Positions 1 to 16,104 of a stretch of 26,146 bases of DNA are shown here, in pieces. The stretch's first letter is position 1; every line of letters starts with the position of its first letter. The notes beneath the pieces were generated by a model. It was given only the letters and a program-made list of their open reading frames with translations, was not told the origin of the DNA and made no database searches. Source of the DNA: a virus (lineage: Duplodnaviria; Heunggongvirae; Uroviricota; Caudoviricetes); the IMG/VR virus record IMGVR_UViG_2695420651_000027; one strand, written 5' to 3'. The translations under genes were made by a program, and so were the position numbers.

Positions 1-204
1 CGGGAAGGAGTAAACCCAGGAATACTGGCTACATACGGTGACGGGGGAATAGTTAAAACGGACGAACCCGGTCTTAAGGTGCCTTCCTCACTACGAGCTA
101 TTAGCTCTCGTAGTGTTAAACGTTATGGTGAAATTAGTGAAAATGTAGGTACAGAAACTCGTCCTCGTAACATCGCTTTTAATTATATTGTGAGGGCCGC
201 ATGA
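1..204 (+). CDS. Tail fibre C-terminal variable exon, copy A (5' end truncated by window edge); identical to the C-terminus of H read on the other strand
   Basis: Plus-strand frame ends NYIVRAA-stop at 202-204, overlapping the tfa ATG at 201; bases 1-240 are the exact reverse complement of 1591-1830. Confidence 0.6.
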   Translation, partial: REGVNPGILATYGDGGIVKTDEPGLKVPSSLRAISSRSVKRYGEISENVGTETRPRNIAFNYIVRAA

Positions 205-806
205 TGAATAAAGCTGTATTAAATAGCGAACTCATTGCCATAAAAGCGGGAGATATTACCGTTTATAATTATGATGGTGAAACGCGGGAATATATTTCTA
301 CATCAACTGAATATCTCGCTGTCGGCGTCGGTATCCCGGCATGTTCCTGTCTGGATGCACCAGGTACACATAAAGCTGGTTATGCAATCTGTCGCTCTGT
401 AGATTTAAATTCATGGGAATATGTGCCAGACCATCGCGGTGAAGTTGTCTATAGTACCGAAACGGGAGATACCAAAGAAATCACAGTTCCGGGTGATTAC
501 CCTGAAAATACAACCACTATCGCCCCATTAACGCCATACGATAAATGGGATGGTGAGAAATGGGTGACGGATACCGAGGCACAGCATAGCGCCGCACTAG
601 ACGCGGCAGAAGTAAAGCGCCAGTCGCTGATTGATGCTGCAATGGCTTCCATCAGTCTGATTCAACTGAAATTACAGGCCGGGCGGAAGCTGACGCAGCC
701 AGAAAACACCCGACTTAACGCTGTGCTGGATTATATTGACGCGGTGACGGCAACAGATACCAGCACAGCGCCGGACGTCATCTGGCCTGAACTGCCGGAG
801 GCGTAG
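201..806 (+). CDS. tfa: Tail fibre assembly chaperone (Tfa, lambda Tfa / Mu U family), cassette A
   Basis: 201-aa ORF; conserved Tfa C-terminal motif VTATDTSTAPDVIWPELP; ATG overlaps preceding fibre stop (ATGA). Confidence 0.85.
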   Translation: MMNKAVLNSELIAIKAGDITVYNYDGETREYISTSTEYLAVGVGIPACSCLDAPGTHKAGYAICRSVDLNSWEYVPDHRGEVVYSTETGDTKEITVPGDYPENTTTIAPLTPYDKWDGEKWVTDTEAQHSAALDAAEVKRQSLIDAAMASISLIQLKLQAGRKLTQPENTRLNAVLDYIDAVTATDTSTAPDVIWPELPEA

Positions 807-1218
807 GCCATTCAATATCTGGCGCACCGGAAGTATCGACCAGTTCCAGTGCGTCCAGATAATCCAGCCACAAATTATATTGCACCAGTTCCTCTCCTTT
901 CAGGCGACCAATCGCCGCTTTACCAGGCCATTGCTTACTGTTTATGTATTCGTTGACCTGATTAATCAATTGCTGCTTTTTCAGTTCGGCTGCGGCAATT
1001 TGTTCCTCATGAGTTGGCGGTGGAATATCAATCCATGCAGGCATTCCGTCGATGACACCTCTGTATTTTCCTTCTGGTGCTTCCTTCATAAATTCGGCAG
1101 CAACAGTGTCGTCAATTTCGATTCCATCATCGGGCCATTCGCCGGATTCCTGATAAGCGATTTTAAGCTCCACAGGGAAAAACGCATTTTTATCGGCACT
1201 GAAAATATATTTCTGCAT
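778..1218 (-). CDS. tfa: Tail fibre assembly chaperone (Tfa family), cassette B, convergent with cassette A
   Basis: 146-aa ORF ending LVDTSGAPDIEWPTPP (Tfa C-terminal motif); 3' ends of the two tfa genes overlap by 29 nt on opposite strands. Confidence 0.85.
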   Translation of the reverse strand: MQKYIFSADKNAFFPVELKIAYQESGEWPDDGIEIDDTVAAEFMKEAPEGKYRGVIDGMPAWIDIPPPTHEEQIAAAELKKQQLINQVNEYINSKQWPGKAAIGRLKGEELVQYNLWLDYLDALELVDTSGAPDIEWPTPPAVQAR

Positions 1219-1220
1219 TT

Positions 1221-1579
1221 CTACCGTCCTATCGAAATATAACTGAATCTGTATTGCTGTGAGATATCACTGGTTGCCACACGCCACGCTGAATTACTGA
1301 TATGTTCAAAATTTACAGACAAAACCTGCGGGGCAGGAATCGACGGGTCTGACTGAACGGCATCAGACATAACACTGACTGAAACCATCGGCTGATTAGG
1401 GAATGGTATAGGGAAGTGTCCACTGATAAAGCGGGTCGTGTTTCCTGCAAAAGTGCCAAACTGAACAATATATCCACCTGGTAGCCTGAACCATCCCGAA
1501 CCAGAAGCGAATGCTCCCATATCCGGTATCTGATTATCTCCTGTGCCCACATCCCTTTTCGCCGCTTCTCCCAAACCAA
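1221..1579 (-). CDS. Alternative tail fibre C-terminal variable exon, cassette B (promoterless; expressed only when fused to H constant region at the crossover site); runs into N gap
   Basis: Open frame from the crossover half-site (encoding LG-E...) to a stop just upstream of tfaB; no ATG, begins at recombination site. Confidence 0.6.
1566..1579. other. Recombination crossover half-site TTCTCCCAAACCAA (hix/gix-like), truncated by N gap
   Basis: Identical 14-mer occurs at 2122-2135 and 16540-16553 where the full 26-bp quasi-palindromic site is visible. Confidence 0.7.
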
Positions 1580-1590
1580 NNNNNNNNNNN
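1580..1590. other. Assembly gap (11 N)
   Basis: Run of N placed exactly between crossover half-site and start of the inverted-repeat copy. Confidence 0.95.
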
Positions 1591-1830
1591 TGGCAATGAG
1601 TTCGCTATTTAATACAGCTTTATTCATCATGCGGCCCTCACAATATAATTAAAAGCGATGTTACGAGGACGAGTTTCTGTACCTACATTTTCACTAATTT
1701 CACCATAACGTTTAACACTACGAGAGCTAATAGCTCGTAGTGAGGAAGGCACCTTAAGACCGGGTTCGTCCGTTTTAACTATTCCCCCGTCACCGTATGT
1801 AGCCAGTATTCCTGGGTTTACTCCTTCCCG
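1591..1830. repeat. Inverted repeat copy (reverse complement of 1-240); covers end of fibre variable exon A and first 40 nt of tfaA
   Basis: Direct comparison: 1-20 is the reverse complement of 1811-1830, and 221-240 of 1591-1610. Confidence 0.9.
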
Positions 1831-3183
1831 TGCACTTCCTGCGGCGAGTCCGTCCCCTGTCCATAATTCCATATAGTGTGCATGGTCCAAAATTGTGTGT
1901 GGCTGCCAATTAAGCAAAGCGCGACCAGTATCAATCCCGCGACTGTCATCCCAGCCACGAATAAATTCACCGCGTAAATCAGGCAATTTATTGGTCGGGT
2001 AAGCCTTTGCCAGTTCCGGGTATTCTTCAGCAGAAAAAGCCGCACCGTTGCATTTCAGCCAGCCTGTTGGCGGAGTGGCGGAAGGCCACGGAACAGGCAC
2101 ACCAACGGGTAATGCCGAACCTTCTCCCAAACCAAGGTATGCGAGAAGACCAGCGACATCCTTTCCACTCAAATTAGTCAGCGTATTGTCCAGCGGTTGT
2201 TTACCTGCCAGCGCATTAAGCATTGTCGTGGCAAAGTTCGGATCATTCCCCAACGCCGACGCCAGTTCGTTCAGTGTATCCAGTGCCGCAGGTGCAGAAC
2301 CTACCATTGCTGCAATCGCCGATTTCACAAAAGCCGTGGTGGCAATCTGTGTATTGTTGACCGACTGTGCAGCAGTGGGGGCTGTTGGCGTTCCGGTGAG
2401 TGCCGGACTCGACAACGGCGCTTTCAGTGCCAGCGCATTGTTAATGGTGGTACTGAAATTCGGATCATTGTTAATGGCTGCGGCTATTTCTTTCAGCGTG
2501 TCCAGCGTGGCTGGCGCACCATTAATAAGAGCCGTCAGTGCCGCCTGAACAAACGCGGTGGTCGCAACCTGCGTGGTGTTATTCCCTGCCGCTGGAGTTG
2601 GCGCTTTTGGTGTCCCGGTAAACGTCGGACTTTCTTTGGGTGCATACTGTGAATGCGGGTCCGGTGCGGCAAGATGTTTTGCCATCTGATCATCCACGTA
2701 CACCTTCAGCTCCAGTACCTTGTCATCCACATACTTGCGGGTTGCCAGCACTACGGCAGGGTCGATTTTCAGGGTGATATTGTCCGTGCTGCTGGTAATC
2801 AGCACCATGCGCACGGTCTGGGTACGCCCGCTGCCTTCAGCCAGTTGCGGCTTATAGCTTTCCGGGCAGTTGCCCACGGCAATCAATGCCCCGGACTCAT
2901 CAAACAGGCCCACTTCACGTATCCACCAACCGCCCTCGTTTTCAGGGATCACCTGTTCAGCAATAATCTGGCTGCTGTTCTGCGGGTCGATATAGAGCAT
3001 ATTCAGCGCAGCCCGGCGTTTCTCATTTACCAATGCTGTCTGCTTGGCGTCCGGCGTTGGCAATGTTCCGCCGCCATCGCCCACCGCCATATGGGTAATT
3101 TTTAGCGGCACACCGAGCGCGGCGGCGCTGGCAAGTTTCGCCGCGCCAATATCCGTCAGCAGGGTATAAAATTTTGTGCTCAT
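1627..3183 (-). CDS. H: Tail fibre protein (P2 gpH-like): constant N-terminal region fused to variable C-terminus A
   Basis: 518-aa ORF; N-terminus MSTKFYTLLTDIG... is P2 H-like; internal approx 68-aa tandem repeat; crossover site embedded at 2122-2147. Confidence 0.85.
   Translation of the reverse strand: MSTKFYTLLTDIGAAKLASAAALGVPLKITHMAVGDGGGTLPTPDAKQTALVNEKRRAALNMLYIDPQNSSQIIAEQVIPENEGGWWIREVGLFDESGALIAVGNCPESYKPQLAEGSGRTQTVRMVLITSSTDNITLKIDPAVVLATRKYVDDKVLELKVYVDDQMAKHLAAPDPHSQYAPKESPTFTGTPKAPTPAAGNNTTQVATTAFVQAALTALINGAPATLDTLKEIAAAINNDPNFSTTINNALALKAPLSSPALTGTPTAPTAAQSVNNTQIATTAFVKSAIAAMVGSAPAALDTLNELASALGNDPNFATTMLNALAGKQPLDNTLTNLSGKDVAGLLAYLGLGEGSALPVGVPVPWPSATPPTGWLKCNGAAFSAEEYPELAKAYPTNKLPDLRGEFIRGWDDSRGIDTGRALLNWQPHTILDHAHYMELWTGDGLAAGSAREGVNPGILATYGDGGIVKTDEPGLKVPSSLRAISSRSVKRYGEISENVGTETRPRNIAFNYIVRAA
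2122..2147. other. 26-bp invertase crossover site inside H (TTCTCCCAAACC AA GGTATGCGAGAA)
   Basis: Imperfect 12-bp inverted half-sites around a central AA; matches the Hin/Gin family consensus as recalled (TTnTCnnAAACC AA GGTTTnnGAnAA). Confidence 0.7.
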
Positions 3184-3785
3184 GGATTCACTCTCATTGT
3201 GTCAATAACATGGACCGCCCCGCCTTCATGCGCGGTGCCGCCGGAAATAATTGTTTCGTTGATATACGGATAGATCGTGATTTCTTCGCCAAGATAGCTG
3301 GCGGCCCCCACCCAATGCGGACCGCTGGTCTGCAGATTGATGGACATGCCGATCATGTGACGGCTACATGGTTTGGCATCGCTTATCAGCCGCTCAAGTT
3401 CCAGATAGGTATCTTCAGTGATGCCCTGGTCCTGCACGCCGATATCCAGGCGAAACGTGCCCGGTGTTTCTCCGGTCTGCCACCACTCAATAATGCGGAT
3501 CAGGAATCCGAACGGTTCCACCACCCGCCGCACGGCACTGGTAGTTCCTTTATGCTGATGAATATAAAAAGCATCCTTCACTACCTGGCGTTTGACGCTT
3601 TCTGTCCAGCCCTCGTCCCAGCGATCCACAGAGAACGCCCAGGCGAGATAAGGCAGGAAGCTGACCGGACAGGTAGCCGGATTCCACAAGTCACGCAGCG
3701 GCACCTGCAGATCAGAAATCCCGCTACAGGTTTGCGCCAGTCGGCGCTCCAGTGAAGTTGAACCCGGTGGCAGCAGACTATTCAT
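3180..3785 (-). CDS. I: Baseplate/tail-fibre attachment protein (P2 gpI-like)
   Basis: 201-aa ORF in conserved position between J and H; overlaps H start. Confidence 0.8.
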   Translation of the reverse strand: MNSLLPPGSTSLERRLAQTCSGISDLQVPLRDLWNPATCPVSFLPYLAWAFSVDRWDEGWTESVKRQVVKDAFYIHQHKGTTSAVRRVVEPFGFLIRIIEWWQTGETPGTFRLDIGVQDQGITEDTYLELERLISDAKPCSRHMIGMSINLQTSGPHWVGAASYLGEEITIYPYINETIISGGTAHEGGAVHVIDTMRVNP

Positions 3786-4686
3786 CCGTTCCTCCGTTGG
3801 TTACGCTCCACTGCGTACATGATGCCGCCTGTGTTTTGTTCAGGACCACATCCGCCAGCGGAGAAGCCAGTTCCACACGTTGAACACCCTCAACATGCAG
3901 AGCAGCAAAGATGGCGCTACGGCGAATATCCCGACCAAGCCTCGTCTGGCTGGCAATGTACTTCTGCAGACTGGCTTTTGCCGCTGCCATTACCGGCTCT
4001 GCTTCCGGTCCCGGATAGAGAAAAATGGTGGCTTCCACGCGATACGGGATGATTTCTGCGCTGCGAACCGTAAGACGGTCAGCCACCGGGCGGACGTTCT
4101 CACTGTTCAGAGCTTTTTCCACCACGTCCAGCAGGTCTTTTTCTGCAGTTCCATCGCCTTCGCGGCTAAGGACAGTCAGCACCACCTCTGCAGGTGCCGG
4201 GCTGGTTGCACTGGCATCCGCCACCCGACCGTCGGCGCTTCGGGCATGAAATTCATAAGCTGCAGTTGGCCCCGCAACTGAAAGCCCTTCAAAGGCTGCA
4301 GGCACACGCAGGCGTAACGCTTCATCGCTTTCCATCACAGCTGCAACGGGCGGCACATCGTCATTATCAGCAGGCGTCACCGTCAGGCGTTTCACGTTGT
4401 AGTTGGCGGCGAGCTGGTCCAGATCGCCCCCTATGGCATAAGCCACCATCACCGCCTGCGCGGCTTCGTTAATGCGCTGGCGCAGAAGCAACTCACGGTA
4501 AGCATTCTCCTGCAACAATTTGGTGACGGGTTCAGATTCCAGTTCCAGCGTGCGGATCACTGCTTCCTGCTCATCTTTCGGATGAAGCGCCACAAATTCT
4601 GCCTTGCGTTCGGCAAGCAGCGTCTCAAAGTCCGGCACATCCACAATCTGCGGCGCAGGCAACTGCGAAAGGTCAATCACTGCCAT
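3778..4686 (-). CDS. J: Baseplate assembly protein J
   Basis: Start moved to internal Met MAVIDLSQLPAP (aligns with P2 gpJ N-terminus as recalled); AGGAG RBS upstream; longer ORF start at 4725 would overlap W. Confidence 0.8.
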   Translation of the reverse strand: MAVIDLSQLPAPQIVDVPDFETLLAERKAEFVALHPKDEQEAVIRTLELESEPVTKLLQENAYRELLLRQRINEAAQAVMVAYAIGGDLDQLAANYNVKRLTVTPADNDDVPPVAAVMESDEALRLRVPAAFEGLSVAGPTAAYEFHARSADGRVADASATSPAPAEVVLTVLSREGDGTAEKDLLDVVEKALNSENVRPVADRLTVRSAEIIPYRVEATIFLYPGPEAEPVMAAAKASLQKYIASQTRLGRDIRRSAIFAALHVEGVQRVELASPLADVVLNKTQAASCTQWSVTNGGTDE

Positions 4687-5032
4687 TCTCTGCTCCTGTT
4701 GATACGGAAAGGGAAACAGGCACACCGTTATTACGCCGCCCGGTCAGCTCCACCACCATTGAACCGTCAAAATTGCTGTTAATGGTGATGGAATCCAGCG
4801 TCAGCCGTGGCTCCCAGCGACTCAGCGCCACATACACTGCCGACATGACCTGCAGGCGTAATGCCGGATTTTGTGGCTGGTCTATCAGTGCCGACAGCAG
4901 GGAACCATATTCCCGACGGGCAATGCGGCTACCCTGCGGCGTCAGCAAAATGTCCCGCACCGACTGGCGCAGATGATCAATATCAGTAATGGCTTTACCG
5001 CTGGTATTGTTCATCCCGCTATAAAGCGTCAT
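4673..5032 (-). CDS. W: Baseplate protein W (gp25/GPW family)
   Basis: 119-aa ORF; similar in pattern to P2 gpW; overlaps V stop. Confidence 0.8.
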   Translation of the reverse strand: MTLYSGMNNTSGKAITDIDHLRQSVRDILLTPQGSRIARREYGSLLSALIDQPQNPALRLQVMSAVYVALSRWEPRLTLDSITINSNFDGSMVVELTGRRNNGVPVSLSVSTGAENGSD

Positions 5033-5607
5033 ACCGGGCCTCCGGTTGTGTCGCCGCCTTTCAGGACGTCAGTATGCTGATGCGCATCAACCACGATCCC
5101 GTTAGAACTCATCGCTCCGCCGCCCTGGGTAACGCCACCATTGATCACCACTTCGCTGTTAATGCGCGTGCGGTCAGCCTCCAGTACAAACTCACTGGTT
5201 TTCATGGTGATGTTGTCAGCGGCCTCAATGACCATTGATTTGATGCCCCTGACATACCAGCGCCCGGTAGTGGGTTCGTATTCAAACCAGCCGCCGTCAG
5301 GATGTTCTGTCACGCAGGCGTCTGCCGACGTCGACGGTGGTGCGAACTGATTCGAATAGACAGCGGGCAGCGCAAAGGCAGTTTCCAGATTGCCGCCCAG
5401 ACTCAGCAGCACCACCTGCTCACCTTCCGATGGTCGCCACCATGTGCGGGCATTCCCGGCACGCAGCGTCAGCCAGCTGATCCAGTTGGTTTCAAGCTCG
5501 CCCGTTTTCACCCGGCAAAGCCAGTTTTCCCGGTCCACTTCGGTGACTACACCAGTGCGGATCAGGTTGGTGATAAGGCGCATGATTTCGGTTAGTTGTG
5601 CGTTCAT
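5029..5607 (-). CDS. V: Baseplate spike/assembly protein V
   Basis: Start at internal Met MNAQLTEIMRLITNLIRTG, aligning with recalled P2 gpV N-terminus; upstream 36 codons of the long ORF are likely untranslated. Confidence 0.75.
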   Translation of the reverse strand: MNAQLTEIMRLITNLIRTGVVTEVDRENWLCRVKTGELETNWISWLTLRAGNARTWWRPSEGEQVVLLSLGGNLETAFALPAVYSNQFAPPSTSADACVTEHPDGGWFEYEPTTGRWYVRGIKSMVIEAADNITMKTSEFVLEADRTRINSEVVINGGVTQGGGAMSSNGIVVDAHQHTDVLKGGDTTGGPV

Positions 5608-5653
5608 AGGGTTAGGTTGCACGGACCTTGAATCTATGGCATCAATACGTCCT

Positions 5654-5671
5654 TGTGTGGTAAATGACACA
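5654..5671. promoter_or_regulatory. Candidate Ogr-dependent late promoter element (TGT-N12-ACA dyad) in the V / cargo intergenic region
   Basis: TGT at 5654-5656, 12-nt spacer, ACA at 5669-5671; same dyad type recurs upstream of O and FI. Confidence 0.45.
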
Positions 5672-5702
5672 AATACAATTCCAATCAAAGAAAGGTAAAA
5701 GA

Positions 5703-6233
5703 ATGAGCCATCCAATTGATTATTACGCTATAGAAGAACACGCAAGAATAATTGAGCAATTATGCTGTTCATCTGAATTTTATTTACAGCGTATATATTC
5801 CACACAGAAAGTATATGATGGTTCTATAGTAACTGAATTTGAAATGGAGGAGTTATCGTACAACGGATGGTTGGAATATACCATTAGCAACAATCTTATT
5901 AGCCTTTGTACAAAACTACGAATTCTCCAAGACACTAGTGAACATGAGTGGAACCCAGATTACTCACCTGAGAAAGAAGCATTTGAAGAACATGAAAATA
6001 TACTTTTTGTTATAGATGGTCATGTTAAAGATTCTATACGCGAATGCTGCAATAAAATTATTCACGCATTAAGTTTTGAGTTAACAAAAAAGACCGGCAA
6101 AAATGGAATAAAATATTGGGACGGTTCTATTATTGCTTCTGGGGTTCAAAACAAAAAAAACTGGAAAATTAAAATAGACCTTTTCCCTTTTTGCCAAAGC
6201 ATAAAAAGTTATTTAAGTTTATTAAGAGCGTAA
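5703..6233 (+). CDS. Hypothetical protein; low-GC cargo (moron) gene at the P2 orf30 position between S and V, opposite strand
   Basis: 176-aa ORF from Met with AAAGG RBS 8 nt upstream; composition visibly AT-rich versus flanking structural genes; no family recognised. Confidence 0.6.
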   Translation: MSHPIDYYAIEEHARIIEQLCCSSEFYLQRIYSTQKVYDGSIVTEFEMEELSYNGWLEYTISNNLISLCTKLRILQDTSEHEWNPDYSPEKEAFEEHENILFVIDGHVKDSIRECCNKIIHALSFELTKKTGKNGIKYWDGSIIASGVQNKKNWKIKIDLFPFCQSIKSYLSLLRA

Positions 6234-6238
6234 ACATT

Positions 6239-6691
6239 CTAATTTTTCATCAATAAATACTTTAAAAGTAAATCTCTTACTTCATTTTCAGTATGTTCAT
6301 TTAAACCCAGCAATTTTCGGGATGGATACTTAATGACTCCCCCCTTTGGACTGACGCGATCGCGCAGACCGTAGTGATGAACACGGGCAATACGCTGTAC
6401 CTTACCTTCAAACTGTACGCTGGCAGAATCCGCGCTGGCGGCAGTTCTCAGGTATTTTGTGGTGCGCAGCTTTGCAAACATCTGACGTTTGATGCGCCCC
6501 TTCTTGCTGCGTGCTGTTACCCTGCGCGGCTCATAACTGCTGCCATCTGGATTGCGCTGCATCCTGATATTCTGCTGCTGTGTCCGGCGCAGTTCCTGCG
6601 CCAGCTGGCGCATCATTCGGCTTCTTGCGGCTGGTTCCAGATTCGCCAGCAAAGCACTCAGCCAGTCGTCCACCTTCTGCAGTTCAGCCAC
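6239..6691 (-). CDS. S: Tail completion protein S
   Basis: 150-aa ORF in conserved R-S order; P2 gpS-like. Confidence 0.75.
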   Translation of the reverse strand: MAELQKVDDWLSALLANLEPAARSRMMRQLAQELRRTQQQNIRMQRNPDGSSYEPRRVTARSKKGRIKRQMFAKLRTTKYLRTAASADSASVQFEGKVQRIARVHHYGLRDRVSPKGGVIKYPSRKLLGLNEHTENEVRDLLLKYLLMKN

Positions 6692-7136
6692 GTTTCACCG
6701 TCCACATTTCTTCAGGTTCATCGGGTTCCGCTACTGCTTCAACGCTCGACACACTTCCGTCAGTGCTGACCAGCACACGTTCCGTCAGTTGCAGGTTGAG
6801 GCTGATATCACAGACATCGTTGCGCAGAATATCCACCTCAAAGGTGAATAACTTTTCCCGTAACGCCGGATTATTGATGGCATCGGGCTGGTTATCACGC
6901 AGCCACAGCAAAACCGGGGCCATCAGCAGATTCTGGTCGCCGCTGAAATCCTCAATCACCACGTTGAGGGTATAACGGTACTCCCATGACATGGAGCTGG
7001 CCCCCGTGGCAACCAGCGAACCGTTATCCACAAACAGATGCAGCTTATCCGGGTTATTGCGGACATAAGGCACTGCTTTATTGAGGGCGTGGCGCAGGGA
7101 TTGTGGTTTGTTCACTGTTTCGCTCCTGACACGCAA
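6684..7136 (-). CDS. R: Tail completion protein R
   Basis: 150-aa ORF; KPQSLRHAL...FVDNGS...RYTLNV pattern matches recalled P2 gpR. Confidence 0.75.
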   Translation of the reverse strand: MRVRSETVNKPQSLRHALNKAVPYVRNNPDKLHLFVDNGSLVATGASSMSWEYRYTLNVVIEDFSGDQNLLMAPVLLWLRDNQPDAINNPALREKLFTFEVDILRNDVCDISLNLQLTERVLVSTDGSVSSVEAVAEPDEPEEMWTVKRG

Positions 7137-7368
7137 TAATCATGTCCACTTTGTCTGCACAGACCGCCCAGGCGGCCTCCGTTTCATCCAGCAATGCGTT
7201 CAGATCACCGTTAGTGCGCGGCGCTGCCTGCTCCAGCCGACACGGCGTCACTCGCGGACAACCACTGACGGTAAGCTGCACCTCCGGTGAGTGCCGGACG
7301 TTCCCGCAGCCGGATAATGTCAGCAGGCAAAGGAGTATCAGCCCAGCGGCGTAAATCCTCGTTCTCAC
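7078..7368 (-). CDS. lysC: Outer-membrane spanin lipoprotein (LysC/Rz1-like), overlapping the 3' end of lysB in another frame
   Basis: Signal peptide plus lipobox LTLSGC; starts inside lysB; Pro-rich mature region. Confidence 0.6.
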   Translation of the reverse strand: MRTRIYAAGLILLCLLTLSGCGNVRHSPEVQLTVSGCPRVTPCRLEQAAPRTNGDLNALLDETEAAWAVCADKVDMIIACQERNSEQTTIPAPRPQ

Positions 7369-7639
7369 GTTTCAGTTCCTCGATCCGGTGTTGTCGTTGT
7401 CTCAGCAGCGCGCTGGTCTGTTCTGCTTCGGCATAGAGCCGCGCCTGCTCCCGGTTATTGGTTTCAGCCAGAATGGACAGACTGATCAGCTGGCTATTTT
7501 TCTTCGTTAGTTCGTGCGCTTTACTTTTCAGCGCCGCGCGCTGCGTTTCGATGGTGTGGCTGGCGCTGTTAAGCCGCCACGACTGCCAGCCCAGCGCAAC
7601 GAGTGCCAGCGCCGCCACTACCGCCAGCGCACGCGTCAT
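7211..7639 (-). CDS. lysB: Inner-membrane spanin (LysB/Rz-like)
   Basis: N-terminal TM segment, coiled-coil-like charged region; ATGA overlap with endolysin stop. Confidence 0.7.
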   Translation of the reverse strand: MTRALAVVAALALVALGWQSWRLNSASHTIETQRAALKSKAHELTKKNSQLISLSILAETNNREQARLYAEAEQTSALLRQRQHRIEELKRENEDLRRWADTPLPADIIRLRERPALTGGAAYRQWLSASDAVSAGAGSAAH

Positions 7640-8151
7640 AATCCAGCTCCTTTAAGGCACCAGGCCATCTCCCGCGCACGGCGGTTATCCAGCCCCTGAT
7701 TAAACACACCTTTCACATAAACCCAGCGCGGCAACTGTCGGCACGCTTCTGCCCAGCGCCGCTGATTGAGCAATTTCACCAGCGTAGAACTGCAGGCATT
7801 GCCCGTTCCCACGTTGAAGGCAAACGACACCGTAGCGTCATATACCTTCTGCGGCGGCTGTTGCTTCACACACCTTTCCAGCGCCCGCTCCACACGCAGC
7901 ACGTTGGAAATAAGCCCTTCTGCTGCCTGTCGTTCCGTGATTGTTTTGCCGGGAATGACGCCCGACGTATTTCCAATGCCGTCGGTCCAGACACCCGCGC
8001 TGCACTGATACGGCTGCAGACGACAACCTTCGTAATCGGCAATCAGTTTCAGCCCCTCCACGGAGGTGTGAAGCTGCTGAAACCCCGGCAGCGTGGCAGC
8101 AATAGCCAGCACGGCCCCGACAAGGCAGCGTTTAACGATTGATGGATTCAT
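7636..8151 (-). CDS. Endolysin, lysozyme family with E-x8-C-x5-T catalytic triad and N-terminal SAR-like hydrophobic segment
   Basis: YEGCRLQPYQCSAGVWTDGIG motif; N-terminal CLVGAVLAIAATLP hydrophobic stretch resembles SAR endolysins (phage 21 R / P1 Lyz type). Confidence 0.75.
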   Translation of the reverse strand: MNPSIVKRCLVGAVLAIAATLPGFQQLHTSVEGLKLIADYEGCRLQPYQCSAGVWTDGIGNTSGVIPGKTITERQAAEGLISNVLRVERALERCVKQQPPQKVYDATVSFAFNVGTGNACSSTLVKLLNQRRWAEACRQLPRWVYVKGVFNQGLDNRRAREMAWCLKGAGL

Positions 8152-8347
8152 AGTCCTCCCGCGAAATCTGCCCGTCGCGCAGAAGCTGGTAGGCTTTGTG
8201 TTTGTAGTACCAGTTGATAGCCAGCATCAGCACACCAATCATCAGGCCGCCCAGCGTTGAGGCATCCTTGATGGACAAATCGCCCAGCCAGGCCAGCACG
8301 ACGGCGATGCAATACGTGATAAAGGCGCTGATTCGCTCAAGCGTCAT
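8132..8347 (-). CDS. Putative holin (small two-TMD membrane protein, pinholin-like)
   Basis: 71 aa, two hydrophobic helices, charged C-terminus; immediately upstream of the endolysin. Confidence 0.6.
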   Translation of the reverse strand: MTLERISAFITYCIAVVLAWLGDLSIKDASTLGGLMIGVLMLAINWYYKHKAYQLLRDGQISREDYESINR

Positions 8348-8350
8348 AAT

Positions 8351-8554
8351 TCAGTCCCATAGCTGGACGGTCTGCACGGTGGTGGTTGTCGGAATGTCCG
8401 GCAGCTCCACCTGCAGCCCGTGAGGTAAAAAGGGGCCGTATTCGGCAAGCCCCGGATTTGCCTTCAGTACCTGCTCCGTGACACCCTGCGTGCGCCCGTA
8501 ATGACGCCAGCAAAGTGCGTCCACCGTGTCATACTGATGCGCACGCACTTTCAT
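8351..8554 (-). CDS. X: Tail protein X
   Basis: 67-aa ORF closely matching recalled P2 gpX (YGRT.GV.E.VL.ANPGLAE...LPHG..VELPD). Confidence 0.8.
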   Translation of the reverse strand: MKVRAHQYDTVDALCWRHYGRTQGVTEQVLKANPGLAEYGPFLPHGLQVELPDIPTTTTVQTVQLWD

Positions 8555-9018
8555 CAGATAAGCTCCACTGTGCAGTGCGGCGCATCCTGCACCCGGCTGA
8601 TGGCCCAGCGGGCGTCACGCCATAAATCACCGCTTGCTTCCGCCAGTTCCTCGCCTCGCTTCGCACCGGATGCCGTGGCGTCATAGTCCTGGTAACGTTC
8701 GTTGAGCATGGCGCGTGCCCAGCAGTAAACCGCGTTGAAATAGTGCTGAATGCGCTCGCTTTTGCCGTCCAGTTGTTCCGCCGGGACTTCTGCCAGCGAG
8801 GCATACCCCAGCATCTGCTGGCGTCTGCGAAACTCATACAGCTCTGCGTTGACCTCCGAAATTGCCGACAGCGCAACCTGCTTTAAACGCGGCTGCGTCA
8901 CCGTGCCGTCAGTGCGCATGACACTGCGAAACTCCGACAGGTCCACATCAGGCCAGAACGGCGTATTTCTGATGATTTCCGCCTGTTCCGGTGCCTGTTC
9001 TGGCGCAACAAACTTCAT
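8554..9018 (-). CDS. L: Head completion/stabilisation protein L
   Basis: Start set at Met MKFVAPEQ preceded by GGAGAA RBS; P2 gpL-like. Confidence 0.75.
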   Translation of the reverse strand: MKFVAPEQAPEQAEIIRNTPFWPDVDLSEFRSVMRTDGTVTQPRLKQVALSAISEVNAELYEFRRRQQMLGYASLAEVPAEQLDGKSERIQHYFNAVYCWARAMLNERYQDYDATASGAKRGEELAEASGDLWRDARWAISRVQDAPHCTVELI

Positions 9019-9113
9019 GCTGCTTTCTCCTGAAATAAAGGGCGGTGGACGGGGTTTTGATGTGGCAGTGCCTTTCGCCACCCCGTGCCGCCCGTGCGCG
9101 GGGGCACGTTCTG

Positions 9114-9764
9114 TCAGCGGCTGTCATTGCGCAGTCTGCGCTCCAGCTGCTGTTTGTCTTTTTTCACGCCACAGCGGGGATCGAGCTGTAACGCATGGTT
9201 GAGATGATTAAGGGCGGAAGCCGGATTACTTTCACTCAGGACAGCGCCAATCGCTTTATGCAGACGCGCCCGTGACTGGTCCGGCATATCCAGACCGTCT
9301 GTCAGCTCCAGCGTCTGCAGCAGCAGATCGACATCAAAGCCGGTAGTGGCAAGCATTGCGCTCTGCGCTGCGTCTGCCATTTCCTCTGCCAGCACGGTCT
9401 GCACGTTGCGGTTACCTAGCGGCATCACCCAGCCATGACGCAGGGCATGACGCCCGATCTCCAGCGCTCCGACATAATCTCCGGCATCAATGCGCCACAG
9501 CATCACGTACATCAGCACGTCATCCTGTTGAGCGCCTCCGGCAGCCAGGACACCCTCCGCCCAGGCGGCGTATTTCGGCAGCAGCTCCACCTTGATTTCC
9601 GCTTTTTTGACCGTGGACTGAACGCCCTTGAGACGGCGGCGGTCTTCTGCCAGTTGCAGCAGCATCAGGTCATAGCCCGACGCGTGGCGAACGCTGCCGC
9701 CCTCGCGGGCGGCCTGTTCAGCCTGAACGCGCAGGCGATGCTGCCGTGCGGGACTCAGGCTCAT
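9114..9764 (-). CDS. M: Terminase small (endonuclease) subunit M
   Basis: 216-aa ORF in conserved N-M-L order. Confidence 0.75.
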   Translation of the reverse strand: MSLSPARQHRLRVQAEQAAREGGSVRHASGYDLMLLQLAEDRRRLKGVQSTVKKAEIKVELLPKYAAWAEGVLAAGGAQQDDVLMYVMLWRIDAGDYVGALEIGRHALRHGWVMPLGNRNVQTVLAEEMADAAQSAMLATTGFDVDLLLQTLELTDGLDMPDQSRARLHKAIGAVLSESNPASALNHLNHALQLDPRCGVKKDKQQLERRLRNDSR

Positions 9765-9767
9765 GGT

Positions 9768-10826
9768 TTACGCTCCGGTTTCTGCTGCGGCGGCGCTGAA
9801 GTCGCCAATCTGGATGTTTTCCACCAGTGCGGCGCAGCGGTAGTCCTCAACCACATAGGCTTCGTTAACGGATTCAAAATTTTCAATCCGGTCACGTTTC
9901 GGGTTGTCGATAACCGAACGGCGGCGGGTGTCTTCCTGCCAGTAAATGGACAGGTTATCCAGACGGGTGATCAGCAGCGCATTCGGCGGGAAGAACGGCG
10001 CACGCACGGCCTGCAGGCCACCCATGCGTTTCTGACTGATGATCATATCGGCAGCCAGTTTTTCACTGTTTTCCTGCTCTTTGTTGACCAGCGGGAAATA
10101 CTTGTCAGACAGCAGCTCACGACCGCAAATCACCACCAGATCGTCATCGTCCTGGTAGACCACGTCGATAAGCTCATTGACCGCATCCATCACCACGGCG
10201 TCCAGGTTGGCATATTCGCCACCTTTCCCGACTTTCACCGCACCCGGTGTGGTTTCACCGCCCGTGGTGGTGCTGCCCATGACGTGATCCGGTGCATCCT
10301 CACGGATTTTCTGCAGCCAGCCTTTGTTCACATCCTGCAGCAGCGGGTTTTCGCTACGGTTGGAGGTTTTCGCACGCTTCACGCCGTTAAAGCCGATCAT
10401 GATGCGGTCCAGTGCCTGGCGTTTCACGATGGCGTCACGGATACGCACCTGGAAATCCTGAAACTTCGCCCACAGGTCCAGCTTCGCGTAGGTCAGCACC
10501 GTGTCAAAGTTGGTCTGTTCGCATTTGTATTCCACATCGATCATCAGCGTCGGATCGACAGGTTCACGCTCTTTCGCGGTGGTGTCAGTGGTTCCGGCAA
10601 TGGTGCTGCCAACACCCAATCCAAGCAGCTGACCGGACTGCTCAGTCACTGGCGTGACGTTAATCAGCGTCAGGAAAGCGGCGGACTGCTGGATCTGGTC
10701 TTCCAGCGTCTGCTGCACAGACGGCTCTACGGTGAACTTGCTGGACAGTTCCTCAACTGCCACACCGTTCAGACGCGCCAGTTGCTGCAGGTAAGCGTTA
10801 AAAGCAAAACGGGTATTCTTCTTCAT
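9768..10826 (-). CDS. N: Major capsid protein N
   Basis: 352-aa ORF; P2 gpN-like. Confidence 0.85.
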   Translation of the reverse strand: MKKNTRFAFNAYLQQLARLNGVAVEELSSKFTVEPSVQQTLEDQIQQSAAFLTLINVTPVTEQSGQLLGLGVGSTIAGTTDTTAKEREPVDPTLMIDVEYKCEQTNFDTVLTYAKLDLWAKFQDFQVRIRDAIVKRQALDRIMIGFNGVKRAKTSNRSENPLLQDVNKGWLQKIREDAPDHVMGSTTTGGETTPGAVKVGKGGEYANLDAVVMDAVNELIDVVYQDDDDLVVICGRELLSDKYFPLVNKEQENSEKLAADMIISQKRMGGLQAVRAPFFPPNALLITRLDNLSIYWQEDTRRRSVIDNPKRDRIENFESVNEAYVVEDYRCAALVENIQIGDFSAAAAETGA

Positions 10827-10842
10827 TGGGTTTTATGCTCCA

Positions 10843-11676
10843 TCAGCAATTGGTCAGAGTGTCAGCGGGGGCGTTGCCGCCTGTTGCACGCTGGCGGTAG
10901 TCCTGGCGGCTGTCTTCATGACTCAGCTTATCCACCAGTTCGTTAAAGGCGGTTTGCTGCTCCTGCAGAGCAGTCTCCAGCTCAGACAGGCGTTCTTCCT
11001 GCTCAGACAGGGATTTTTCGGTGCGCGTGCTCAGGTTCTGCTGCTCAGTGGCGACCAGTTCCACGGCCTTATGCACATCAGAGAACCGGACGTCATCGGA
11101 CTGCTCTTTTTTGGTAAACAGCGCCGTGACGCGGGCAAACAGGGACGGCTTGTCCTCCTGGATTTCTTCCAGTTCGATCACCGTTTCCTCTGCAGCGGTA
11201 AAAAGATTGGCAGGATTCTGCTTGCGGTTTGCCAGCGGGTTATGGGCTGCACTGGCGCTGAATGTCAGCATTTCCGTACCCAGACTGGCGGGATCATCAG
11301 TGGCAGCCAGGCCGACCAGGTAGGCTTTGCCCGTATCAGCAAACTTCGGGCTGACTTCCATAGAGGTGAATAATTTCTGGCCTTTTTTCACCAGTTCCAC
11401 CAGGGACTCCGTTGGCTCAACGTCGGCATACAGTGCCATCTTGCCTGCCAGCGGACCTTCCGCGATTTCTTCAGCAAACAGCGCCGTCACCTTGCCGTAG
11501 CGGTTAAACGTGCTGTCCGGCAGATAAGACTTAATGTGCTCAAGGTTAATCAGCGCGGTATACACCGCCGGGTTGTAGCTGGCTGCCATCTGTTCCAGCC
11601 ATTCACGCTGGATTTCGCGTCCGTCGGTAGTGGCACCTTCCACCCCGATGCGAAAACGCTTTGCTTTCACTGTCAT
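10843..11676 (-). CDS. O: Capsid scaffolding protein O
   Basis: 277-aa ORF; FRIGVEG..DGR..INLEH motifs as in P2 gpO; C-terminal ...TNC. Confidence 0.85.
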   Translation of the reverse strand: MTVKAKRFRIGVEGATTDGREIQREWLEQMAASYNPAVYTALINLEHIKSYLPDSTFNRYGKVTALFAEEIAEGPLAGKMALYADVEPTESLVELVKKGQKLFTSMEVSPKFADTGKAYLVGLAATDDPASLGTEMLTFSASAAHNPLANRKQNPANLFTAAEETVIELEEIQEDKPSLFARVTALFTKKEQSDDVRFSDVHKAVELVATEQQNLSTRTEKSLSEQEERLSELETALQEQQTAFNELVDKLSHEDSRQDYRQRATGGNAPADTLTNC

Positions 11677-11754
11677 GAGCCGTGCTCCGTTAGAAAAAAC
11701 TTACTGGAGCCTTATGGTTGCGGTGATGGGGGCAGTGAAACAATGCGCGGTATT

Positions 11755-11772
11755 TGTACCGACAACCACACA
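11755..11772. promoter_or_regulatory. Candidate Ogr-dependent late promoter element (TGT-N12-ACA) in the divergent P / O intergenic region
   Basis: TGT 11755-11757, 12-nt spacer, ACA 11770-11772, in the 142-bp gap between divergent O and P starts. Confidence 0.5.
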
Positions 11773-11818
11773 AACCGCAGGCGGGGAAAGCCTTCATTCA
11801 AGGCTGTAGGTTTGTGCC

Positions 11819-13585
11819 ATGAACACCACACTGACACCCGCAGATCTCGATCCCCGTCGGCAGGCCATGCTGCTGTACTTTCAGGGATACCGCGTAGCCC
11901 GCATTGCTGAAATGCTGGGCGAGAAAGTTGCAACCGTTCACAGCTGGAAAAAACGCGACAAGTGGGGTGACTATGGGCCGCTGGATCAGATGCAGCTCAC
12001 CACCGCCGCCCGCTACTGCCAGCTCATTATGAAGGAGCACAAAGAAGGGAAAGATTTCAAAGAAATTGACCTGCTGGCGCGCCAGTCGGAGCGCCACGCG
12101 CGGATCGGCAAGTTTAACAATGGCGGCAACGAAGCCGACTTAAACCCTAACGTCGCCAACCGCAACAAAGGGCCGCGCCGTCAGCCGGAAAAGAATGTTT
12201 TCACCGATGAACAGATTGAGAAGCTGGAAGAAATCTTCCATTCCTCCATGTTCAACTACCAGCGCCACTGGTGGGAAGCCGGAAAAACCAATCGCATCCG
12301 CAACCTGCTGAAGTCTCGCCAGATCGGCGCGACCTTTTACTTTGCCCGTGAAGCCCTGATTGACGCCCTGCTGACCGGACGTAACCAGATTTTCCTTTCC
12401 GCCAGTAAGGCACAGGCCCACGTCTTTAAGCAGTACATCATCGACTTCGCCAAAGAAGTCGAGGTGGAGCTGAAAGGCGATCCGATGGTGCTTCCTAACG
12501 GGGCCACGCTTTACTTCCTCGGCACCAATGCCCGCACGGCCCAGAGTTACCACGGCAACCTGTATCTGGATGAATATTTCTGGATACCGAAATTCCAGGA
12601 GCTGCGCAAAGTGGCTTCCGGTATGGCTATTCACAAAAAATGGCGACAAACCTATTTTTCCACGCCATCCAGCCTGACACACAGTGCTTATCCGTTCTGG
12701 TCCGGTGCGCTGTTCAACCGAGGGCGCAACAAAGCCGATAAGGTGGACATCGACCTGTCCCACAGCAATCTGGCCCCCGGCCTGCTGTGCGCAGACGGGC
12801 AGTACCGCCAGATAGTCACCGTGGAAGATGCGGTGCGCGGCGGCTGTAACCTGTTCGACCTTGACCAGTTGCGCATGGAGTACAGCCCGGACGAATACCA
12901 GAACCTGCTGATGTGCGAGTTCGTGGACGATCTCGCGTCCGTGTTCCCGCTCAGCGAGCTGCAGGCGTGCATGGTGGACAGTTGGGAAGTCTGGACCGAC
13001 TTTCATGCACTGGCCCTGCGCCCGTTTGGCTGGCGCGAAGTGTGGATCGGATATGACCCGGCGAAAGGTACGCAGAACGGCGACAGCGCCGGATGCGTGG
13101 TGGTGGCGCCGCCAGCCGTGCCGGGCGGTAAGTTCCGCATTCTTGAGCGTCACCAGTGGCGCGGAATGGACTTCCGCGCCCAGGCTGACGCCATCAAAAA
13201 ACTGACCGAACAGTACAACGTGACCTATATCGGTATCGACTCAACCGGCGTTGGTCACGGGGTTTACGAGAACGTGAAAGCGTTTTTTCCTGCCGTCCGG
13301 GAGTTTGTCTACAACCCCAACGTTAAAAACGCCCTGGTACTCAAGGCCTACGACATTATCAGCCACCGCCGTCTGGAGTTTGACGCCGGACACACCGACA
13401 TAGCGCAGTCCTTTATGGCAATCCGTCGCGCCACCACCGCCAGTGGCAACCGCCCGACCTATGAAGCCAGCCGCAGCGAAGAAGCCAGCCACGCCGATCT
13501 GGCCTGGGCAACGATGCACGCACTGTTTAACGAACCGCTGCAGGGCGAATCCGCCAATACCAGCAATATTGTGGAGATTTTTTGA
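11819..13585 (+). CDS. P: Terminase large (ATPase) subunit P
   Basis: 588-aa ORF; N-terminus LTPADLDPRRQAMLLYFQGYRV resembles P2 gpP. Confidence 0.85.
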   Translation: MNTTLTPADLDPRRQAMLLYFQGYRVARIAEMLGEKVATVHSWKKRDKWGDYGPLDQMQLTTAARYCQLIMKEHKEGKDFKEIDLLARQSERHARIGKFNNGGNEADLNPNVANRNKGPRRQPEKNVFTDEQIEKLEEIFHSSMFNYQRHWWEAGKTNRIRNLLKSRQIGATFYFAREALIDALLTGRNQIFLSASKAQAHVFKQYIIDFAKEVEVELKGDPMVLPNGATLYFLGTNARTAQSYHGNLYLDEYFWIPKFQELRKVASGMAIHKKWRQTYFSTPSSLTHSAYPFWSGALFNRGRNKADKVDIDLSHSNLAPGLLCADGQYRQIVTVEDAVRGGCNLFDLDQLRMEYSPDEYQNLLMCEFVDDLASVFPLSELQACMVDSWEVWTDFHALALRPFGWREVWIGYDPAKGTQNGDSAGCVVVAPPAVPGGKFRILERHQWRGMDFRAQADAIKKLTEQYNVTYIGIDSTGVGHGVYENVKAFFPAVREFVYNPNVKNALVLKAYDIISHRRLEFDAGHTDIAQSFMAIRRATTASGNRPTYEASRSEEASHADLAWATMHALFNEPLQGESANTSNIVEIF

Positions 13586-14619
13586 TGGGAAAGAGTAAGA
13601 AGAACCGCGCTGCGGCGACGAAACAGATCCAGCTTAAAAGTCAAACTACAGCCGAAGCATTCAGCTTCGGCGATCCCGTTCCTGTTCTGGACCGCCGAGA
13701 ACTGCTGGATTATGTGGAATGCGTACAGATGGACCGCTGGTATGAGCCGCCCGTCAGCTTTGACGGACTGGCGCGCACCTTCCGCGCTGCCGTGCATCAT
13801 AGTTCCCCGATTGCAGTAAAGTGCAACATTCTGACCAGCACCTACATCCCTCACCCGCTGCTCAGCCAGCAGGCTTTTTCGCGTTTTGTGCAGGACTATC
13901 TGGTTTTTGGTAACGCCTACCTGGAGAAACGCACGAACCGCTTCGGTGAAGTTATCGCCCTTGAGCCTGCACTGGCAAAATACACCCGACGCGGGTTAGA
14001 CCTGGATACCTACTGGTTTGTGCAATACGGTATGACAACCCAGCCGTATCAGTTCACGAAAGGCAGCATTTTTCATCTGATGGAACCGGATATTAATCAG
14101 GAGATCTACGGCCTGCCCGGTTATCTTTCTGCCATTCCGTCAGCCCTGCTCAACGAGTCCGCCACGCTGTTCCGTCGCAAGTATTACATTAACGGCAGTC
14201 ATGCGGGCTTTATCATGTACATGACCGATGCCGCGCAAAACCAGGAGGATGTGAACAACCTCCGCAATGCGATGAAAAGCGCCAAAGGTCCAGGCAACTT
14301 CCGCAACCTGTTTATGTACTCGCCTAACGGCAAAAAAGACGGGCTTCAGATCATCCCATTGTCAGAAGTCGCGGCGAAGGATGAGTTTTTGAATATCAAA
14401 AATGTCAGCCGCGACGACATGATGGCTGCGCACCGCGTGCCGCCGCAAATGATGGGGATTATGCCTAATAATGTTGGAGGGTTTGGGGATGTGGAGAAGG
14501 CCAGTCGCGTATTTGTACGTAATGAATTAACGCCCTTGCAAAAAAGGCTACAAGAGCTGAACGACTGGCTGGGCGAAGAAGTGATTAAATTTACGCCCTA
14601 TATTCTTTCAGAAGAATAA
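13582..14619 (+). CDS. Q: Portal (capsid vertex) protein Q
   Basis: 345-aa ORF, overlaps P stop; P2 gpQ-like. Confidence 0.85.
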   Translation: MMGKSKKNRAAATKQIQLKSQTTAEAFSFGDPVPVLDRRELLDYVECVQMDRWYEPPVSFDGLARTFRAAVHHSSPIAVKCNILTSTYIPHPLLSQQAFSRFVQDYLVFGNAYLEKRTNRFGEVIALEPALAKYTRRGLDLDTYWFVQYGMTTQPYQFTKGSIFHLMEPDINQEIYGLPGYLSAIPSALLNESATLFRRKYYINGSHAGFIMYMTDAAQNQEDVNNLRNAMKSAKGPGNFRNLFMYSPNGKKDGLQIIPLSEVAAKDEFLNIKNVSRDDMMAAHRVPPQMMGIMPNNVGGFGDVEKASRVFVRNELTPLQKRLQELNDWLGEEVIKFTPYILSEE

Positions 14620-14627
14620 TTCCGAAC

Positions 14628-15326: not shown

Positions 15327-15406
15327 GTCAATTACTCCTCCCTATGAAAAAAATGAGTTGAAAAATTGAATATTCACGACTTAAAAAGCTAGGTAATGAC
15401 TCCAAC

Positions 15407-15910: not shown

Positions 15911-16104
15911 CCAACGCCATTCATGGCCATATCAATGATTTTCTGGTGCGTACCGGGTTGAGAAGCGGTGTAAGTGAACTGCAGTTGCCATGTTTTACGG
16001 CAGTGAGAGCAGAGATAGCGCTGATGTCCGGCGGTGCTTTTGCCGTTACGCACCACCCCGTCAGTAGCTGAACAGGAGGGACAGCTGATAGAAACAGAAG
16101 CCAC
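15829..16104 (-). CDS. insA: IS1 InsA
   Basis: 91-aa [26 protein letters not shown]... identical in pattern to IS1 InsA; A6C frameshift motif at about 15847-15853. Confidence 0.9.

Follow-up and report, generated by a model that had tools for sequence, protein, structure and literature searches.

A tail-fibre locus with the make-up of a Pin/Gin/Cin-type inversion switch in a P2-family prophage of Escherichia coli

Genes of the fibre locus and their setting

The analysed window, i.e., the whole stretch of 26,146 nucleotides, represents the start of a public scaffold in which three contigs are joined by two gaps of 11 Ns each. Pfam searches revealed a P2-family gene complement in this window, including capsid, scaffold, terminase and portal genes, the baseplate genes V-W-J-I, those for sheath, tube, tape-measure and D, and ogr, while its contigs align at about 96-99.7% to the closed genome L001 (RefSeq annotation). 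These hits, the annotation of the closed genome and the late-promoter dyads listed below bear out the assignment to a P2-type prophage that had been made in a sequence-only reading of this DNA. The features of the locus and of its surroundings are as follows.

1-1579: contig A
1-204, plus strand: 3' end of exon A, drawn a second time at the start of contig A, duplicating the reverse complement of 1591-1830
201-806, plus strand: tfaA, chaperone of cassette A, 201 aa (Pfam Caudo_TAP, E=3.5e-30)
778-1218, minus strand: tfaB, chaperone of cassette B, 146 aa (Pfam Caudo_TAP, E=9.3e-34)
1221-1579 (1221-1565 without the crossover motif), minus strand: cassette B tip (exon B), without a start codon of its own (Pfam Gp53-like_C, E=3.6e-09)
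1580-1590: 11-N scaffold gap between contigs A and B, with the same Ns in the public record L008
1591-16159: contig B
1627-3183, minus strand: whole H open reading frame, 518 aa
1627-2135, minus strand: cassette A tip (exon A), H residues about 350-518, GSALPVG...IVRAA (Pfam Collar, E=1.2e-14)
2122-2147: H-side crossover site of 26 bp, TTCTCCCAAACC AA GGTATGCGAGAA (read from the inside outwards)
2136-3183, minus strand: constant N-terminal part of H, P2-type, codons 1-349 (Pfam Phage_tail_fib N-terminal domain, E=3.6e-65)
5654-5671, minus strand: TGT-N12-ACA dyad upstream of V, likely the Ogr-dependent late promoter of a V-W-J-I-H-tfa operon
16160-16170: 11-N scaffold gap between contigs B and C, contig B ending at the last base of IS1
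16171-26146: contig C
16171-16539, minus strand: 5' part of exon A in an exact second copy, here adjoining the invertase flank
16540-16565: invertase-side crossover site, TTCTCCCAAACC AA CGTTTATGAAAA
16621-17187, plus strand: DNA invertase, 188 aa (Pfam Resolvase, 2.3e-53, and HTH_7)
16639-16710, within the 5' end of the invertase gene: putative Fis-dependent recombinational enhancer (sequence-level evidence)
17236-17253, plus strand: TGT-N12-ACA dyad upstream of the sheath gene FI, likely the P_F late promoter

The fibre gene H, whose upstream neighbours are P2 I and J, thus consists of a P2-type constant part followed by the cassette A tip. Searches against PDB sequences matched exon A to the tip of T4 gp37 (2xgf, 8.8e-18) and to short tail fibres, its product is about 55% identical to the tips of phages deposited as P2-like, and the first 221 bp of the exon are 92% identical at the DNA level to stfE of e14. 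Exon B, which begins at the inner half-site plus core of a crossover site (1566-1579), shares its Pfam family with the variable part of StfP of e14, a link that holds at the Pfam level only, as BLASTP found no similarity between exon B and StfP; a PDB sequence search with tip B returned no significant match. H is in frame with either tip, yielding products of 518 aa (H-A) or 468 aa (H-B) which have residues 1-354, ending AYLGLGE, in common; an inversion could swap the tip together with its chaperone, as had been proposed. As the two tips belong to different Pfam families, it is likely that they recognize different receptors.

Each tip is accompanied by its own Caudo_TAP chaperone, in agreement with the earlier claim that the fibre has two alternative C-termini and a separate tfa gene for either. 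The ATG of tfaA overlaps the stop codon of H (ATGA), and TfaA exhibits 90% amino-acid identity to TfaE of e14. The tfaB gene is convergent with tfaA, their 3' ends overlapping by 29 bp, and its product is 56% identical to TfaP of e14 and 30% identical to the C-terminus of Mu U'. The locus therefore presents two convergent cassettes, each made up of a start-less fibre exon followed by its own chaperone gene (Collar plus Caudo_TAP and Gp53-like_C plus Caudo_TAP).

By comparison with the late promoters of P2, the dyad upstream of V is likely to act as the promoter of the V operon, and would then transcribe whichever cassette abuts H. The open reading frame at 17330-18502 encodes the tail sheath protein, and the position of the P_F dyad at 17236 indicates that the switch and the invertase lie in the space that separates the H-G operon from the F operon.

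Contig overlaps and the resolved order of the segment

The sequence-only reading had exon A plus tfaA facing tfaB plus exon B within 1-2147. The convergence of the two cassettes stands, while the layout apparent in this interval is a scaffolding artefact, produced by a contig overlap and the N gaps. Positions 1-240 repeat 1591-1830 as its reverse complement, without a difference in any of the 240 bases, and the plus-strand ‘exon A plus tfaA’ is consequently the terminal part of H shown a second time; likewise, the first 40 nt of tfaA are also found at 1591-1630 on the minus strand. This duplicate reflects a contig overlap and not a further copy in the genome; the contig L007, which has no gaps, contains a single one. 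A further repeated piece lies at the start of contig C, where 16171-16553, i.e., the exon A copy plus the site core, is identical to 1753-2135 at 383 of 383 bases. Finally, the last base of contig A falls exactly on the AA core of the crossover site.

An IS1 insertion within the segment was considered as the cause of these contig breaks and rejected: the ends, equivalent to positions 1830, 1753 and 1591, share no single insertion point, and the IS1 of the window (15392-16159) lies beyond the portal gene. Since this IS1 ends contig B, the early region of the prophage is located outside the window.

The 14-mer TTCTCCCAAACCAA was found at 1566-1579, where exon B starts without an initiation codon, and in frame at 2122-2135, at the constant/variable junction inside H; both observations agree with what had been claimed for them. 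A third copy is present at 16540-16553, directly after the exact 383-bp exon A copy. Three occurrences in the window compare with 0.23 expected when up to two mismatches are permitted, and none of 100 shuffles reached this number. As scaffolded, all copies are on the plus strand, and those at 1566 and 2122 are direct repeats, meaning that the geometry shown in 1-2147 is not invertible; the contigs have to be re-joined for an inverted geometry to emerge. The gap-free records L001 and L007 contain two sites and no more, in inverted orientation, which speaks against a motif that would lack a second copy in the true genome.

Both 26-bp sites consist of two imperfect 12-bp half-sites around a common 2-bp core, AA, and are of the hix/gix/cix type. 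On the sense strand of H, the H-side site encodes A-Y-L-G-L-G-E, the AA/TT core being situated in Leu codon 350. Its half-sites resemble those of P1 cix (TTCTCTTAAACC AA) and Mu gix (TTCCTGTAAACC GA); with respect to the core dinucleotide, AA is shared with cix and hix, whereas gix has GA.

The locus was reconstructed (form G1) as the reverse complement of 1591-3300, followed by 241-1579 and 16554-17400. This reconstruction is 100.000% identical, without gaps, to the independent gap-free contig L007 over 3,896 bp, and it is matched in one piece by closed E. coli genomes at 99% identity, with P2 genes on both sides. The true order is as follows: the constant part of H, the first 26-bp site, tip A (Collar) with tfaA, the convergent tfaB with tip B (gp53-like), the second and inverted 26-bp site, 68 bp, the invertase gene, the FI late promoter and FI. 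The invertible segment measures ~1.88 kb. One closed genome (H28) was observed to carry an IS1 inside the segment.

With three copies of the 14-mer in the window, and three-repeat versions known from P2-like prophages, one could also suppose a multi-site shufflon in which at least three crossover sites serve more than two tips, as in Min of p15B or in the P2-like EPEC locus with three repeats. The same 383-bp exon A is, however, found at two of these copies, where only the sequence outside it differs, and gap-free records of the identical locus hold exactly two sites and two cassettes, which renders such a shufflon extremely improbable. The third site was accordingly dismissed as a shufflon element, because two distinct sites and two cassettes are left once the contig overlaps are removed.

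The invertase and the probable inversion of the segment

The predicted invertase, whose start is preceded by a GGGGG Shine-Dalgarno sequence 6 nt upstream, shares 87% identity with PinE of e14, 79% with Cin and 75% with Gin; it aligns over its full length to the Gin structure 3uj3, with conservation of the catalytic-serine motif MLIGYVRVSTNDQ. Judged by these alignments, it is an intact small serine recombinase of the Pin/Cin/Gin/Hin family and not a pseudogene. A Hin/Gin-family enzyme had indeed been recognized in the sequence-only reading, although it was placed ‘elsewhere in the window’; its start is 68 bp past the third site (at 16540), so that the gene adjoins the segment. A simple scan for a sigma-70-like promoter between this site and the ATG returned no candidate.

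The putative enhancer comprises two Fis-like motifs (16643-16657 and 16691-16705), 48 bp apart, in the position of the annotated enhancer of P1 cin, to which nt 19-90 of the invertase gene are 78% identical. The motif KNNYRNNWNNYRNNM occurs at nt 23 and 71 in this gene, gin and cin alike, a conservation without independent weight since the motifs sit in conserved coding sequence.

Evidence that the segment inverts is indirect, and comes from both the scaffold itself and the comparison of genomes. In contig B, exon A is joined to H, whereas in contig C it is joined to the invertase flank, the shared stretch being 100% identical; aligned to the closed genome L001, contig C runs in reverse for its bases 1-395 and forward for the remainder, and the junction between exon A and the invertase is the one expected in the flipped orientation. 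The finding of the same tip-A DNA at both H and the invertase flank indicates that the sequenced culture probably contained both orientations. The scaffold contains neither the junction of H with exon B nor that of exon B with the invertase. In closed E. coli genomes, with a coverage of at least 80% required, the G1 form was matched by 40 records and the flipped one by 32.

Alternatively, the locus may have the architecture of a switch but a single fixed orientation, the junction in contig C then deriving from a second, near-identical prophage or a tandem dilysogen that has the other orientation, or from gaps filled with reads of a paralogous element. E. coli genomes often hold several related modules (a median of two places per genome, and up to 10-14), and e14 has the same site as well as the 92%-identical stfE start. 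Against this, the 383 bp of contig C are 100% identical to the prophage's own exon A, compared to 92% for e14, the flank past the site is likewise 100% its own, and contigs B and C align to a single prophage at ssrA in a closed relative. Constant flipping is, moreover, documented behaviour of such loci, having been shown by whole-genome sequencing and PCR for P2-like prophages of EPEC (PMC4272514), and a fixed orientation is therefore considered unlikely. Very probably, this P2-family prophage, integrated at ssrA of E. coli, carries a site-specific inversion switch of the Pin/Gin/Cin type.

In such a switch, and following the mechanism of the Hin/Gin family, the invertase would bind both sites and, with Fis on the putative enhancer in the 5' end of its own gene, cut the central AA/TT dinucleotide, whereupon the segment of roughly 1.88 kb would be inverted. 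Late transcription from the V-operon promoter would proceed through H into the adjoining cassette, and particles would bear H-A (518 aa), folded with the help of TfaA, or else H-B (468 aa), for which TfaB would be the chaperone, with the distal cassette, which has no start codon, remaining silent. Mixed orientations in the culture most likely broke the assembly and gave rise to the duplicated pieces of the window.

Relation to known switches and significance

The locus had been likened to the Mu G and P1 C segments, a comparison which is valid for its logic and geometry but not for its closest match: on the basis of sequence, its nearest relative is the P segment of e14 with PinE. The two do not differ in the crossover core CCTTCTCCCAAACCAA or in the invertase-side outer half CGTTTATGAAAA, and the whole invertase-side site, including its outer half, is identical to the pinE-proximal site of e14; the inverted repeats of the P segment are quoted in PMC12529663. 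The e14 element has the same pair of cassettes, one with a Collar-type tip and TfaE, the opposing one with a gp53-like tip and a TfaP-like chaperone, in a segment of 1,797 bp (compared to about 1.88 kb here), with the invertase start 67-68 bp from the site. It differs in that its fibre gene is a remnant and stfE a pseudogene, while a full-length P2-type H and a complete P2 late-gene set are present here, and in that StfP has diverged from tip B beyond BLAST recognition.

This relationship raises the question of whether the switch now mainly serves the host, with one orientation giving a fibre-tip protein that would block the adsorption of other phages, as reported for the e14 P segment, where inversion by PinQ yields StfE2. 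In keeping with such a role are the site core and pin-proximal outer half identical to those of the P segment, an invertase 87% identical to PinE, the presence of TfaE and TfaP homologues, a gp53-like tip that falls into one Pfam family with the variable part of StfP/StfE2, and the IS1 that interrupts the prophage beside the portal gene. It is, however, at odds with a full-length P2 H in a complete late-gene set with its dyads, for which expression is expected only after induction; exon B has no BLAST similarity to StfP, and the sequence gives no sign of expression in the lysogen. A host-serving function is consequently regarded as rather improbable. Because neither the site core nor the pin-proximal half-site differs from that of the e14 P segment, it is also conceivable that the invertase acts in trans on e14-type segments within one cell, and the reverse, which would couple several fibre switches; one orientation might then yield a gp53-like tip that protects the lysogen by blocking adsorption of other phages, as reported for PinQ and StfE2, though this would seem a long shot.

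Mu G/Gin and P1 C/Cin follow the same logic as the switch described here, with a constant S or H part, an in-frame site (LGLxE), a tip plus chaperone, a convergent second cassette and a second site, and their invertase genes likewise start about 64-68 bp from the site and hold an enhancer in their 5' end, where the putative one lies here. Their segments are larger (3.0 kb for Mu G and 4.2 kb for P1 C, compared to 1.9 kb here), and comparison of the fibre tips and TfaA with Mu S, S' and U brought no similarity to light, the one resemblance being that of the TfaB C-terminus to U' (30%). Phage P2 itself corresponds to the present prophage in late-gene order, the N-terminal domain of H and the late-promoter dyads. 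P2 has one fixed H tip and one chaperone (G), and is not known to have an invertase; it differs from the present prophage, in which the switch and the invertase sit in the slot between G and FI. Fels-2/Fin of Salmonella, which is cited in PMC4272514 and PMC12529663, is also an invertible tail-fibre locus of a P2-like prophage.

The P2-like loci of EPEC E2348/69 share the type of host element and the position of the switch, their inversions spanning about 1.8-2.2 kb, and sequencing and PCR have shown that the orientations coexist in clonal cultures; one of them has three repeats and four variants, compared to two sites here (PMC4272514). This kind of switch is thus already known, and the P2-like E. 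coli arrangement has been described and seen to flip (PMC4272514). For scans of genomes, the locus illustrates that N gaps and contig overlaps can mimic extra cassettes or a distant invertase, and that duplicated junctions in a draft scaffold may be read as evidence of a switch flipping in the sequenced culture. For the biology of these phages, it adds one more case of a textbook mechanism, in which phase-variable tail-fibre tips represent bet-hedging on host range by a temperate phage.

Scaffold structure and reconstruction of the fibre locus

Two runs of 11 N interrupt the window, which therefore represents three contigs (A, B and C) rather than continuous DNA:

1-1579: contig A
1580-1590: N gap, 11 N
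1591-16159: contig B
16160-16170: N gap, 11 N
16171-26146: contig C

Identical Ns are present in the public scaffold CYCH01000031.1 (GCA_001285725.1; 49,524 bp), the first 26 kb of which corresponds to the window. The contigs overlap: the reverse complement of 1591-1830 exactly matches 1-240, while 1753-2135 is repeated exactly, and in the same direction, at 16171-16553. Two minus-strand ORFs (1313-1630 and 16138-16593) cross the N gaps, with translations containing XXXX, and are chimeric scaffolding artefacts rather than genes. At 16160-16170 the IS1 end of contig B is set beside contig C, whereas closed genomes display a different order, i.e., the reverse complement of B, the segment and then C.

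The locus was reconstructed by placing contig A after the reverse complement of contig B and continuing with contig C from 16554 on. The resulting order is the constant part of the P2-type tail fibre gene H, a crossover site, tip A, tfaA, the convergent tfaB and tip B, an inverted site and the invertase. This 3,896-bp reconstruction aligns without gaps and at 100.000% identity to an independent contig free of Ns (GCA_012766475.1), and its 2,594-bp core returned single-piece 99% matches in closed E. coli chromosomes, where the locus is positioned between gene I and the tail sheath gene within a fully annotated P2-family prophage. N-free or closed records of the locus possess exactly two, mutually inverted sites, and the invertible segment spans ~1.88 kb from core dinucleotide to core dinucleotide.

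The sequence-only reading, which proposed a tail-fibre inversion switch at 1-2147, is supported in its interpretation, and the genes and sites it observed are real, while the layout it described was distorted by scaffolding. What it read as a separate plus-strand exon A with tfaA is the end of H, shown a second time through the 1-240 overlap, and the two sites it paired lie on either side of an N gap as direct repeats, a geometry that is not invertible. Furthermore, the invertase that it placed elsewhere in the window is preceded by a third site copy, which had been missed.

Fibre cassettes, crossover sites and invertase

The following features, with domains assigned by Pfam, constitute the switch:

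1627-3183, minus strand: H, with a P2 fibre N-terminal domain and, in tip A, a Collar domain
201-806: tfaA, Caudo_TAP chaperone
778-1218: tfaB, Caudo_TAP chaperone
1221-1565: tip B, Gp53-like_C domain
16621-17187: invertase, 188 aa, Resolvase and HTH_7 domains

An in-silico flip leaves H open, generating products of 518 aa (H-A) and 468 aa (H-B) with residues 1-354 in common, these ending in AYLGLGE, which is encoded by the crossover site. The H stop codon overlaps the tfaA start (ATGA), while that of tip B is followed, 2 nt on, by the tfaB start. The 3' ends of tfaA and tfaB, on opposite strands, overlap by 29 bp (778-806), with a similar (D)(V/I)xWPxxP motif at the end of each. Sequence matches to the T4 gp37 and gp12 fibres were obtained for the collar region of tip A; a PDB sequence search found no solved relative of tip B.

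The 14-mer TTCTCCCAAACCAA occurs at 1566, 2122 and 16540 (68 bp upstream of the invertase), in every case on the plus strand, where 0.23 matches would be expected at up to two mismatches and none of 100 shuffles reached three. The 26-bp sites, TTCTCCCAAACC-AA-GGTATGCGAGAA and TTCTCCCAAACC-AA-CGTTTATGAAAA, are both similar to cix (TTCTCTTAAACC-AA) and gix (TTCCTGTAAACC-GA). The invertase can be aligned from end to end with the crystal structure of Gin, retains the catalytic-serine motif, and is 87% identical to PinE of the E. coli K-12 defective prophage e14, 79% to Cin of P1 and 75% to Gin of Mu. Nucleotides 19-90 of its gene share 78% identity with the annotated enhancer of P1 cin, and a degenerate Fis motif is located at nt 23 and 71 in this gene, gin and cin alike. 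The 48-bp spacing agrees with known enhancer geometry, and this stretch of conserved coding DNA is a putative Fis enhancer.

Orientation of the invertible segment

Exon A is joined to the H constant part in contig B and to the invertase flank in contig C, the copies being 100% identical; a locus present once and fixed in one orientation could not yield this pair of junctions. When contig C is placed on a closed genome, its first 395 bases align in reverse and the remainder forward, while the last bases of contig A are the AA core, the point where both continuations part. The same junctions could be attributed to a pair of nearly identical prophage copies, one in each orientation; the simplest reading, and in our judgement a probable one, is that both orientations coexisted in the culture that was sequenced. 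Such a mixture has a precedent in the P2-like prophages of EPEC E2348/69, whose invertible fibre segments flip constantly according to whole-genome sequencing and PCR (PMC4272514). Both orientations exist across closed E. coli genomes: at a coverage of at least 80%, 40 records match the form with tip A joined to H (best identity 99%) and 32 the flipped form (97%).

Prophage context and relationship to known switches

Pfam searches of the window identified P2 capsid, terminase, portal, J, I, sheath and D genes, and TGT-N12-ACA dyads, the likely late promoters, precede V and FI and also occur between O and P. The prophage is adjoined by ssrA, which marks its right end, and smpB; past the portal gene comes a complete IS1 of 768 bp:

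15392-16159: IS1
15407-15910: InsB (Pfam)
15829-16104: InsA (Pfam)
25087-25449: ssrA (tmRNA gene)
25664-26146: smpB

The last base of IS1 is the end of contig B, at the N gap; the prophage early region is therefore absent from the window, and it may be disrupted. A 232-aa DUF4145 protein is encoded directly beyond portal gene Q (14628-15326, minus strand), where P2 has its old/tin hotspot of accessory genes; it gave a weak PADLOC match to defence gene PD-T7-4 (E=1.2e-6). An ORF of ~176-189 aa (about 5703-6233, plus strand), antisense to the late genes, occupies the P2 orf30 position between S and V; it returned no Pfam or PADLOC match, and the annotation of the closed relative L005 (NZ_CP061754.1) lists it as hypothetical. 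A conserved 160-aa ORF between ogr and ssrA (24481-24963, minus strand) gave only a sub-threshold BRCT match.

The ssrA prophage of L005 (12454-15188) shows 97.7-99.75% identity with contigs B and C. Its H gene is longer, it carries only one tfa alongside a recombinase, the TTCTCCCAAACCAA site was not found in it, and it has apparently lost the switch, leaving an orphan invertase.

The e14 P segment with PinE is the closest relative of the switch. Its core and entire invertase-side site are identical to those described here, these repeats also appear in PMC12529663, and its gp53-like and Collar/stfE-like tips are arranged likewise, with TfaE 90% identical to TfaA and TfaP 56% identical to TfaB. 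Unlike in e14, the fibre gene under control of the present switch is P2 H at full length, within a complete late-gene set. The likeness to Mu G and P1 C suggested by the sequence-only reading holds for logic and recombinase family, but the cargo differs. Cross-talk with e14-type segments, together with a host-protective role modelled on PinQ and StfE2 (PMC12529663), is considered very improbable. The same tip pair occurs, with an invertase, in many deposited P2-like phages, invertible fibre segments of P2-like E. coli prophages have been published (PMC4272514), and the switch is of an already known kind, with 100%-identical copies in other assemblies.

Following the established mechanism of this invertase family, the invertase bound to both sites and Fis bound to the enhancer would form a synapse, in which cleavage by the invertase at the AA/TT core would lead to inversion of the segment. 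Late transcription from the V-operon promoter would then read H into the adjoining cassette only, and each particle would therefore carry either a Collar-type tip folded by TfaA or a gp53-like tip folded by TfaB.
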